A stretch of 64,000 nt of DNA, taken from positions 4,678 to 68,677 of the forward strand of contig CAMDAB010000004.1 of assembly GCA_945888475.1 (NCBI GenBank). Reading direction: 5' to 3'. Made by a program: the position numbers and the translations under genes. Shown one piece after another: positions 38,100 through 38,985 of the stretch. This DNA comes from Saprospira grandis DSM 2844. GTDB lineage: Bacteria > Bacteroidota > Bacteroidia > Chitinophagales > Saprospiraceae. The notes under the pieces are model-generated. The model did not search any database. It was not told the DNA's origin and saw only the letters and a program-made list of their open reading frames with translations. The stretch's first letter is position 1. Every line of letters starts with the position of its first letter.

Positions 38100-38985
38100 A
38101 ACGCGAACAGCGCTATACTTTTACATTCACTCTGATGTTATTAGATTTTAAACTTTCAAACATCATGTTGCGCCTCTCCGAAGCTTGTTACCTTATCGCA
38201 CCTTTGGTGCTAAGAATGTTGTGCTTCTCCGAAGCTGATTTTAAGGCAATTGTCAAAAAAAGCAGATTGTTTTAGTCAGTCGAAGATTTTTGTGTATCAG
38301 TATTTCTACCGTTCAATCTGTGTTTTGAAACTGTATTTTAAGCGCGGATTTAATGGACAATACTGACCCTAAAACGCCTTGCTGAGGACTAGATTTTTTG
38401 TTACTTTTTTAGCGATGAAAAAAGTAAAAAAGAAAAGAGAAAGGGACGAACTTTGGGTTTTTATGCTCACACGGAGAAAAGAGAAAAAATCTATCGATTT
38501 GAGATGATTTAAGGCTAAAGCCTTTTGGAAAAACGCGCCGGAGGCACCGCTTCTAAATGTCTGAAGCACCAGCGTATGGAAGCAGCATCGGCTGGCAATG
38601 GTACTGTTTGAATGACGGACAAATGGAGCGGAGTAACAAGCTAAGGTTAGAGATGCTGCTTCCGGTTTCGGGTTACTTGTAAATAATCTATTGTTAAACA
38701 TTGGCTTACAACCCGAAAACGCCTTGCTGAGGACTAGATTTTTTGTTACTTTTTTAGCGATGAAAAAAGTAAAAAAGAAAAGAGAAAGGGACAAACTTTG
38801 GGTTTGAAAATCTCACGGTGAGCAGGAGGAAAATTGATCGATTTTGAGAAAAGATCAAACAGCTGCAATTGTTAGGCATTAAAATCTTGTGTATCAGTAT
38901 TTCTGCCTTCTTCTCGTCCGAAAGACGAGACTAACTTCTACCTTCTACCTTCTACCTTCTACTCGTCCGAAAGACGAGACTAGCT
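38100..38985. repeat. Complex non-coding region: a ~93-bp direct repeat twice, a second direct repeat (TTGTGTATCAGTATTTCT) at both ends, a central GC-richer structured segment, and a terminal mosaic element (site 8: two CTCGTCCGAAAGACGAG hairpins flanking a CTTCTAC satellite)
   Basis: The ~93-bp repeat sits at about 38368-38460 and 38708-38800. It contains a 10-bp-stem hairpin TTACTTTTTT-agcgatg-AAAAAAGTAA. Between the copies is a 12-bp-stem hairpin GGAAGCAGCATC...GATGCTGCTTCC. Confidence 0.55.

Follow-up and report, generated by a model that had tools for sequence, protein, structure and literature searches.

A lineage-specific nest of interspersed repeats in a convergent intergenic spacer of freshwater Saprospiraceae, with a predicted three-way-junction core

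Multicopy small-RNA gene families such as FopS of Bacteroides, Qrr and LhrC occupy intergenic positions in several copies per genome, with a conserved fold. Small interspersed repeats are the other group of described DNA to which the present locus is close. The BOX, RUP and SPRITE (PMC3049150), ERIC and Correia (PMC3184786) elements are non-coding, multicopy, intergenic units of 100-400 nt with a bias towards gene ends; they are modular (in BOX the parts are boxA, boxB and boxC, PMC3049150), have a stable predicted fold, keep to a narrow clade and include truncated and nested copies. REP and BIME sequences (PMC2817692, PMC3733652), tagged with GTAG or CGTC, form extragenic, clustered and mosaic arrays between convergent genes, biased towards the 3' ends of genes, and the minisatellite-bearing MITE (a miniature transposable element with inverted repeats) of Porphyromonas gingivalis (PMC4596501) provides a non-autonomous, non-coding, multicopy example from the Bacteroidota that is associated with tandem repeats and differs in presence or absence between related genomes. 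Here we analyse positions 38100-38985 (~0.9 kb) of a 64,000-nt stretch of Saprospiraceae DNA (ENA metagenome contig CAMDAB010000004.1 of assembly GCA_945888475.1, hereafter the window), the gap in which a gene for a protein with a type IX secretion system (T9SS) sorting tail converges with a TraB/GumN protein gene. We assign a probability of roughly 0.6 to the reading that interspersed repeats peculiar to this lineage are nested in the spacer, and that its main part is an undescribed, non-coding, multicopy element of a few freshwater Saprospiraceae.

In copy number, genomic location, modular build and narrowness of host range the element is like known repeats; it is new as a family, while its kind, the structured interspersed repeat, is known. 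It agrees with BOX, ERIC and Correia in every property listed above, but its predicted fold is a three-way junction with a long-range closing helix instead of one long terminal-inverted-repeat hairpin; wherever a check was possible it has no terminal inverted repeat (TIR) or target-site duplication (TSD), and in sequence it is not similar to these families. It likewise resembles the P. gingivalis MITE in all the respects named, although TIRs and TSDs, the defining marks of a MITE, were not found at the one unit with defined ends (397 bp; mosaic modules blur the ends of the other copies) and no parent insertion sequence (IS) is known for it. With REPs and BIMEs it has in common an extragenic, clustered and mosaic arrangement biased towards gene 3' ends, and the small hairpins of the spacer, tCTCGTC-N5-GACGAGa, look like REPs, with a 7-9-bp stem, a 5-nt loop and a copy number that varies between strains. 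Unlike a REP, the main element is ~250 nt long rather than a 20-40-nt palindrome; and while the CGTC tag of REPs lies at the foot of the palindrome (PMC3733652), the CGTC of the spacer hairpins adjoins the loop. The hairpins also run head-to-tail with heptamers, not in the alternating orientation of BIMEs, and no RAYT gene was found, the sole candidate being a partial open reading frame (ORF) without a Pfam match at L003 (L-numbers denote the DNA loci of relatives and metagenomes that were compared with the window). Set against FopS, Qrr and LhrC, finally, the element agrees in copy number, predicted fold and intergenic position, but is larger, has no recognisable promoter/terminator pair, and shows the presence/absence differences and truncation of mobile DNA.

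The distribution of the element carries the main finding. An exact 23-mer of the repeat occurs, among species-representative genomes, on 11 contigs in three Saprospiraceae metagenome-assembled genomes (MAGs), one of which accounts for seven; a pattern covering the junction between helices P2 and P3 (see below) identifies five more copies in lake metagenome contigs, and two further copies lie in L023 and L025. The total stands at 17 full copies plus fragments. An earlier note on this DNA, made from the sequence alone, had proposed a structured RNA or MITE-like element in the region and had given repeat units confined to this place as part of what would refute it; a candidate of this kind is indeed present, and it recurs at at least 17 loci in several genomes and metagenomes. 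Nearly every match has the GC-richer central segment immediately 5' of what that note called a 93-bp repeat. All copies are intergenic and their flanking genes are unrelated. The gene upstream is co-oriented in all 10 copies where it is known; convergent genes enclose eight of the 10, and divergent, promoter-bearing spacers contain none.

The element is missing from orthologous spacers of relatives. L019 has the same TraB/T9SS arrangement, with flanking proteins that are 75% identical, and its spacer consists of only 90 bp of heptamers; at the DUF6923-tRNA-YebC locus the element is found in four genomes and is absent in L024, a relative with 55% amino-acid identity. Incomplete copies, truncated or deleted, occur in the window, L003 (an internal deletion), L007 and L009, and the core is combined with two or more kinds of 5' module and three or more kinds of tail. 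Given that the orthologous spacers of distant relatives lack the element, and that its complete, truncated and mosaic copies are dispersed at gene ends, we conclude that this DNA is young and that it is spreading, or once spread, as a unit. In close relatives, contigs terminate at these repeats, which explains the breaks of Saprospiraceae MAG contigs at such spacers.

Within the window, the element core of ~250 nt (~340 nt counting the end modules) is complete at 38532-38780; the end modules widen this to about 38511-38860. A profile search with nhmmer recovers this copy at 38532-38778 (E=2.7e-79) together with a second, partial match at 38361-38433, equivalent to model positions 176-248. By blastn, collinear similarity to other loci spans ~38511 to ~38860: position 38511 is the 5' limit common to matches from L007, L009, L013, L014 and L015, and matches through tail-1, one of the alternative tails that follow the core, reach 38832-38861 in L005, L007, L009, L015, L016 and L018. 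In L008 the 5' hairpin module is longer and compensated (AAAGGCCCcgaaagctttcgaGGGCCTTTT).

The repeats and hairpins listed in the earlier note are all present, with slightly shifted coordinates, and chance would be expected to produce none of them. Its ~93-bp direct repeat measures 95 nt (38366-38460 and 38711-38805, 98% identity, the copies being 345 bp apart), lengthens to ~140 nt at 87% identity (38366-38504 and 38711-38849), and contains a 33-mer with two exact occurrences in the window against none expected. Both copies hold the 10-bp-stem hairpin TTACTTTTTT-agcgatg-AAAAAAGTAA, whose arms reach 17 nt at 88% complementarity. Nevertheless, the repeat does not flank a structured region as had been thought. 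The second copy is the 3' third of the element itself and carries the 3' strands of helices P3 and P1. The first belongs to an orphan, 5'-truncated copy that retains the same two strands along with the terminal A/U hairpin (38394-38434), an A-rich run and tail-1, but is without the 5' strand of P1, P2 and the 5' strand of P3; it has no pairing partners, and the suggestion of two small RNAs (sRNAs) finds no support. The orphan is fused to a dispersed module, M2, at the hexamer TGACCC common to both, probably by illegitimate recombination. It would then be a dead 3' fragment left by recombination with another repeat module, with 38532-38780 as the intact copy. The same order of a partial followed by a full copy is seen in L007.

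There is no credible ORF in the spacer, as had been suspected. The 141-aa minus-strand ORF (38369-38794) spans both repeats, has no Pfam match and stays open in just two of 15 copies; variable columns are spread evenly over its codon positions (35/34/37, p=0.94, 15 copies), a result that shows no periodicity, and the copies differ by 1-nt and 7-nt indels. An ATG in the terminal hairpin, replaced by ATA in L023, heads unconserved A-rich peptides of 10-30 codons, and the mini-ORF beginning MKKVKK after the hairpin was rejected as a gene, its peptide being unconserved among copies. Twelve clusters of spurious "hypothetical proteins" (P0083-P0094; NCBI, JGI, ENA), from a collection of 5.8 billion proteins, are minus-strand translations of the element.

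Known RNAs and mobile elements are likewise not matched. With Rfam 15 at gathering thresholds, the whole window yields only a signal recognition particle (SRP) RNA and a cobalamin riboswitch, both outside the spacer, and at E<=10 the interval 38000-39100 yields just chance-level eukaryotic snoRNA, miRNA and lncRNA models; the Rfam scan that the earlier note had called for thus returns nothing relevant. The likeness to SRP RNA seen by its author does not hold either, since RF00169 has no match in the spacer even at E<=10 and the true SRP RNA lies elsewhere (Table 1). The 9-mer GGAAGCAGC, which also occurs in the domain IV region of 4.5S-type RNAs such as that of E. coli, is here just one side, the 5' strand, of the 12-bp stem P2. 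Searches of viral contigs with two sequence patterns and of phage and plasmid collections with blastn gave 0 matches, and a literature search returned no paper that ties Saprospiraceae to such repeats or structured RNAs.

A consensus fold was computed with RNAalifold from an alignment (A3) of 15 copies, 10 at first. It consists of a three-way junction of helices P1, P2 and P3, followed by a terminal A/U hairpin (Table 1); the perfect 12-bp stem singled out earlier is P2. Folded alone, the window copy (38532-38780) has a minimum free energy (MFE) structure equal to the consensus, at -75.1 kcal/mol, near the centroid and with z=-3.0, and the most divergent copy forms the same three-way junction (z=-5.6). 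The central segment by itself (38461-38710), which covers the 38480-38700 proposed for folding in the earlier note and halves the element, does no better than shuffled sequences (z=-0.6 and -1.4), because the 3' strand of P1 is left out. A longer pairing within the P2 apex was also considered and rejected: by eye in A3, its register varies among copies and no consistent helix results.

Table 1. Features of the spacer and its surroundings, in window coordinates
Feature	Position	Strand	Remarks
T9SS-sorted protein gene, Por_Secre_tail	37086-38099	+	5' neighbour; stop just before the spacer
Locus-specific spacer	38100-38289	.	After the stop of the T9SS-tail gene; 0 coverage by other fetched loci
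Dispersed module M2 (...AATCTGTGTTTTGAAACTGTATTTTAAGCGCGGATTTAATGGACAATACTGA)	38290-38365	+	Outer repeat copy 1 at left edge
Orphan 5'-truncated element copy	38366-38504	+	Repeat identity to 38711-38849 and partial nhmmer match
5' hairpin module AAGGCTAAAGCCTTTTGG, then A-run	38511-38531	+	Terminator-like on + strand
H0 hairpin	38535-38547		Within full core
P1	38559-38575 with 38719-38734		GUCU-GA-AGCA-CC-AGCGU with ACGC-CU-UGCU-GA-GGAC; tandem G.A and pyrimidine internal loop
P2, perfect 12-bp stem	38578-38589 with 38652-38663		Variable apex 38590-38651 (~60 nt)
P3	38666-38673 with 38711-38718		Variable apex 38674-38710 (~35 nt)
Terminal hairpin	38739-38779		A/U-rich
Tail-1, 3' tail module	38781-38860	+	A-rich, GGGACAAACTTTGGGTTT, CTCACGGTGAG hairpin, ATCGATTTTGAGA
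Weak M2-like fragment	38875-38907	-	Holds outer repeat copy 2
Two REP-like hairpins tCTCGTC-CGAAA-GACGAGa	38913-38929, 38962-38978
Heptamer microsatellite (CTACCTT)x4.6	38931-38962		Tandem Repeats Finder (TRF); between the two REP-like hairpins
TraB/GumN protein gene	38986-39774	-	3' neighbour; stop codon 38986-38988
Small SRP RNA, RF00169	55417-55515	-	46.7 bits

Sequence variation among the copies follows the fold. Over the 15 copies, variation is seen in 13 of the 90 paired columns, compared with 93 of the 155 unpaired ones (Fisher p=1e-12), stems being ~4 times less variable than loops, and the contrast persists when the variable apices are left out (p=3e-5). Substitutions within stems leave a standard pair in 39 of 46 cases, against 18% expected for single random changes, and 99.1% of aligned pair cells are paired, compared to 34-49% in slid controls. 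The P3 pair 38669/38715 occurs as C-G, A-U, U-A or U.G and is paired in 15/15 aligned copies and also in L023 and L025; five further pairs switch between Watson-Crick and G.U, and both changes of L006 in the internal loops of P1 produce wobble pairs. As for the strand, the wobble tally leans to the plus strand (47 G.U cells versus 2 A.C cells), which the raw MFE favours as well. The terminal hairpin has two unrelated apex sequences, one of which, present in L003, L006, L007, L008 and L012, is the REP-like hairpin that occurs elsewhere in these genomes. It is a curious property of pair 38669/38715 that it is hypervariable yet always paired, in the middle of an otherwise invariant helix.

These observations support, but do not prove, that a single-strand fold is kept by selection. 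Were the fold under selection, it would follow that the element acts or propagates as a folded single strand, and the simplest form of such a strand would be an RNA of ~250-340 nt. At the DUF6923-tRNA-YebC locus, two of the four genomes carry in place, but inverted, a 397-bp unit made up of 5' module, core and tail (L010 767-1164 versus L012 and L023), as though the element were a self-contained unit, independent of its neighbours. Recurrent inversion was considered and dropped, as the gene tree requires one event only; compared with an invertible promoter switch (inverton), the two orientations do exist across species, but without bounding inverted repeats. Between L010 and L012 the core differs by 5 substitutions in ~236 nt outside the swapped hairpin apex, and the adjacent modules are ~89% identical.

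A number of points weigh against a selected and transcribed fold, and against mobility. Of the pairs, 34 of 45 are invariant, and invariant positions are uninformative on selection, so that covariation comes down to one fully compensated pair and five wobble-toggling pairs. The fold was derived from the same alignment that was used to test it, and the copies are related, hence the cell counts exceed the number of independent events; counted per event, only about 6 changes are compatible with the plus strand and 2 with the minus strand. Composition-corrected z-scores are alike on the two strands (-2.6 and -2.9), and H0 with its invariant A-run resembles an intrinsic terminator when read on the minus strand. 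No conserved Bacteroidetes-type promoter (TTTG-N19-21-TAnnTTTG) is found on either side of the element copies; the two kinds of upstream module likewise have no common Bacteroidetes -33/-7 motif, and a sigma-70 scan gives background. There is no plus-strand terminator after the terminal hairpin. On the side of mobility, no partner transposase or reverse transcriptase was seen at the fetched loci, and the case for movement comes from distribution rather than from a mechanism. At its ends the 397-bp unit shows no bounding or terminal inverted repeat beyond a non-terminal TGTCT, and there is no target duplication at the L010/L012 junctions, the empty sites L019 and L024 being too diverged for base-level alignment. 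Finally, gene conversion between paralogues or a recent recombination tract could account for the low divergence of the core between orthologous copies; the neighbouring gene is 79% identical over its full length and 96.7% identical at its 3' end.

With these points counted, the further step that the core represents a new class of ~250-nt structured RNA, carried on a cassette that is multiplying in Saprospiraceae genomes, can be put forward only tentatively. The putative class would be recognised by a three-way junction with tandem G.A in the closing helix, by two variable apical domains, and by one hypervariable pair that is always paired; and it might be a multicopy regulator that has been domesticated, or else a mobile element with an RNA structure. 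The element may possibly act as a multicopy small RNA, and it may be tolerated where it is because it lands between convergent genes.

Rather doubtful, in our view, is a family of host small-RNA genes, in which trans-acting regulatory paralogues were multiplied by duplication or recombination and the truncated copies are debris. Multicopy sRNA families do exist in Bacteroidota, FopS of Bacteroides thetaiotaomicron being an example, and the structure-preserving substitutions with their one covarying pair would suit such a family, as would the stronger conservation of the core, relative to the modules next to it, when orthologous copies are compared. The unit stands in either orientation at one locus, like an independent gene, and H0 with its U-run could terminate a minus-strand sRNA; yet a conserved promoter is missing, the element itself is missing at two orthologous loci in relatives, and many copies are truncated or deleted. 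The tie to selfish-looking repeats is close, to the point that a REP-like hairpin is nested in the element's own terminal hairpin, and the position between convergent genes is typical of tolerated insertions. The taxonomic range is also very narrow: 11 + 5 matches in two large collections, and 12 clusters of spurious ORFs in a set of 5.8 billion proteins.

A 3'-end module acting in cis, of the REP/BIME or ERIC/BOX type, that is, a co-transcribed terminator, insulator or mRNA stabiliser with no separate RNA, is unlikely. A 250-nt three-way junction with conserved junction and loops far exceeds what termination or the blocking of exonucleases needs, and the in-place inversion implies that no fixed orientation is needed. 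The element does always follow a co-oriented gene, and eight of 10 copies lie between convergent genes, but co-orientation is automatic in convergent spacers, which leaves only L005 and L011 informative. More in keeping with such a module are the terminator-like hairpins that face both ways (AAAGGC...GCCTTTT on the plus strand, H0 on the minus strand) and the mosaic, modular build reminiscent of BIMEs and BOX (PMC2817692, PMC3049150). The related idea in the earlier note of a regulatory leader finds no footing, as both flanking genes end in the spacer; the downstream gene is convergent in 8/10 loci, not co-oriented as it would be with a riboswitch or leader, and the neighbours are unrelated.

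We consider it very unlikely that the element is a non-autonomous IS remnant with a guide or scaffold RNA, of the IS200/IS605 (omega/reRNA) or IS110 (bridge RNA) type, mobilised in trans as single-stranded DNA. The lack of TIRs and TSDs, the equal structure potential of the two strands, the hairpins at both ends, and a conserved scaffold with variable apices are what such a remnant would show. Against it, Rfam gives no match, either to HEARO or to IS605-associated models, to the extent that Rfam 15 includes these; the variable loops and the flanks share only 7-11-nt matches, so that loop-flank complementarity is at chance level; and the two end hairpins are unrelated in sequence. No transposase adjoins any copy at the fetched loci, and no TnpA, TnpB, IscB or IS110 gene was seen at any of them. 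At the contig end of L003, a partial minus-strand ORF (4119-4571) has a YCLMPNHFHFL motif that recalls HUH/Y1 transposases of the IS200/RAYT type; followed up as a RAYT lead, it has no Pfam match at E<=0.01 and was set aside. The least tenable alternative, a purely local product (a tandem duplication or a decayed gene unique to the locus), to which two copies 345 bp apart with 98% identity over 95 nt could have pointed, is already refuted by the at least 17 unrelated loci and the absence of a gene-like signal in any frame.

For the reading preferred here, of an interspersed-repeat nest, the part that is directly observed adds one more small interspersed repeat family, mainly of use in annotation as a source of spurious ORFs. 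If the fold is also selected and transcribed, the element would amount to a new structured RNA of considerable size in a freshwater lineage that is uncultured and ecologically abundant, and would offer a natural case of the spread of a folded non-coding unit that has no recognisable transposon ends. Taken together, core, alternative end modules, REP-like hairpins and pervasive heptamer microsatellites make for unusually dynamic intergenic DNA in this clade.

A separate observation concerns the DUF6923 locus. In L022 (1572-2839), a 70% relative, an IS with HTH and rve integrase ORFs and TTTTAGGAT-containing repeats lies directly downstream of the DUF6923 gene. It occupies the site where other genomes have the element.

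The remainder of the spacer is a mosaic in its own right (Table 1). The first, locus-specific part probably constitutes the upstream gene's 3' end; it contains the inner direct repeat noted earlier (38165-38185 and 38216-38236, 21 nt, 90% identity), the second copy of which can fold at 38223-38235 into the terminator-like hairpin GCTTC-TCC-GAAGC, with a T-rich run after it. Module M2 has blastn matches of 75-97% identity to L003, L004, L005, L007 and L015-L018, in both orientations, and lies directly 5' of element cores at other loci, where it constitutes the type-2 5' module. The outer direct repeat TTGTGTATCAGTATTTCT is likewise as described (38290-38310 and 38887-38907, 21 nt, 95% identity), within a broader 71% match between 38237-38310 and 38840-38907. 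Read by eye, the reverse complement of the weak fragment that holds its second copy resembles M2 (AATACTGAT.CACA.AGATTTT).

The array of REP-like hairpins and heptamers at 38908-38985 adjoins the TraB/GumN stop codon, and a strain with a 98% identical TraB has four REP-like hairpins at this locus instead of the two in the window. Six hairpins of the form tCTCGTC-N5-GACGAGa are found in the window (at 8027, 8096, 24919, 29838, 38913 and 38962) against 0 expected, and others at L006 2733, L015 1689 and L021 833-928, mostly inside heptamer repeats.

Upstream of the spacer, a cobalamin riboswitch (RF00174, 35511-35640, plus strand, 44 bits) stands immediately 5' of two tandem genes (35811-37085 and 37086-38099), both of which encode T9SS-sorted (Por_Secre_tail) proteins of otherwise unassigned family. 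This suggests that the proteins encoded at 35811-38099 are B12-regulated and secreted or surface-exposed. Microsatellites with a 7-nt period fill many other spacers of the window (22407-22578, 24940-25023, 28529-28564, 29856-30073 and 31166-31280, in addition to 38931-38962), with TATTCGT, TTCTAAC, TCTGACA, CTACCTT and others as units, an unusual genome-wide habit. A 24/56-nt minisatellite (TTGTTAATTTGAAAATGAGGGAAT) lies at 40364-40489, within a stretch of low GC content and high GC skew 5' of the AhpC/redoxin gene, and tandem repeats of 34 nt and 87 nt occur at 13778-14026.

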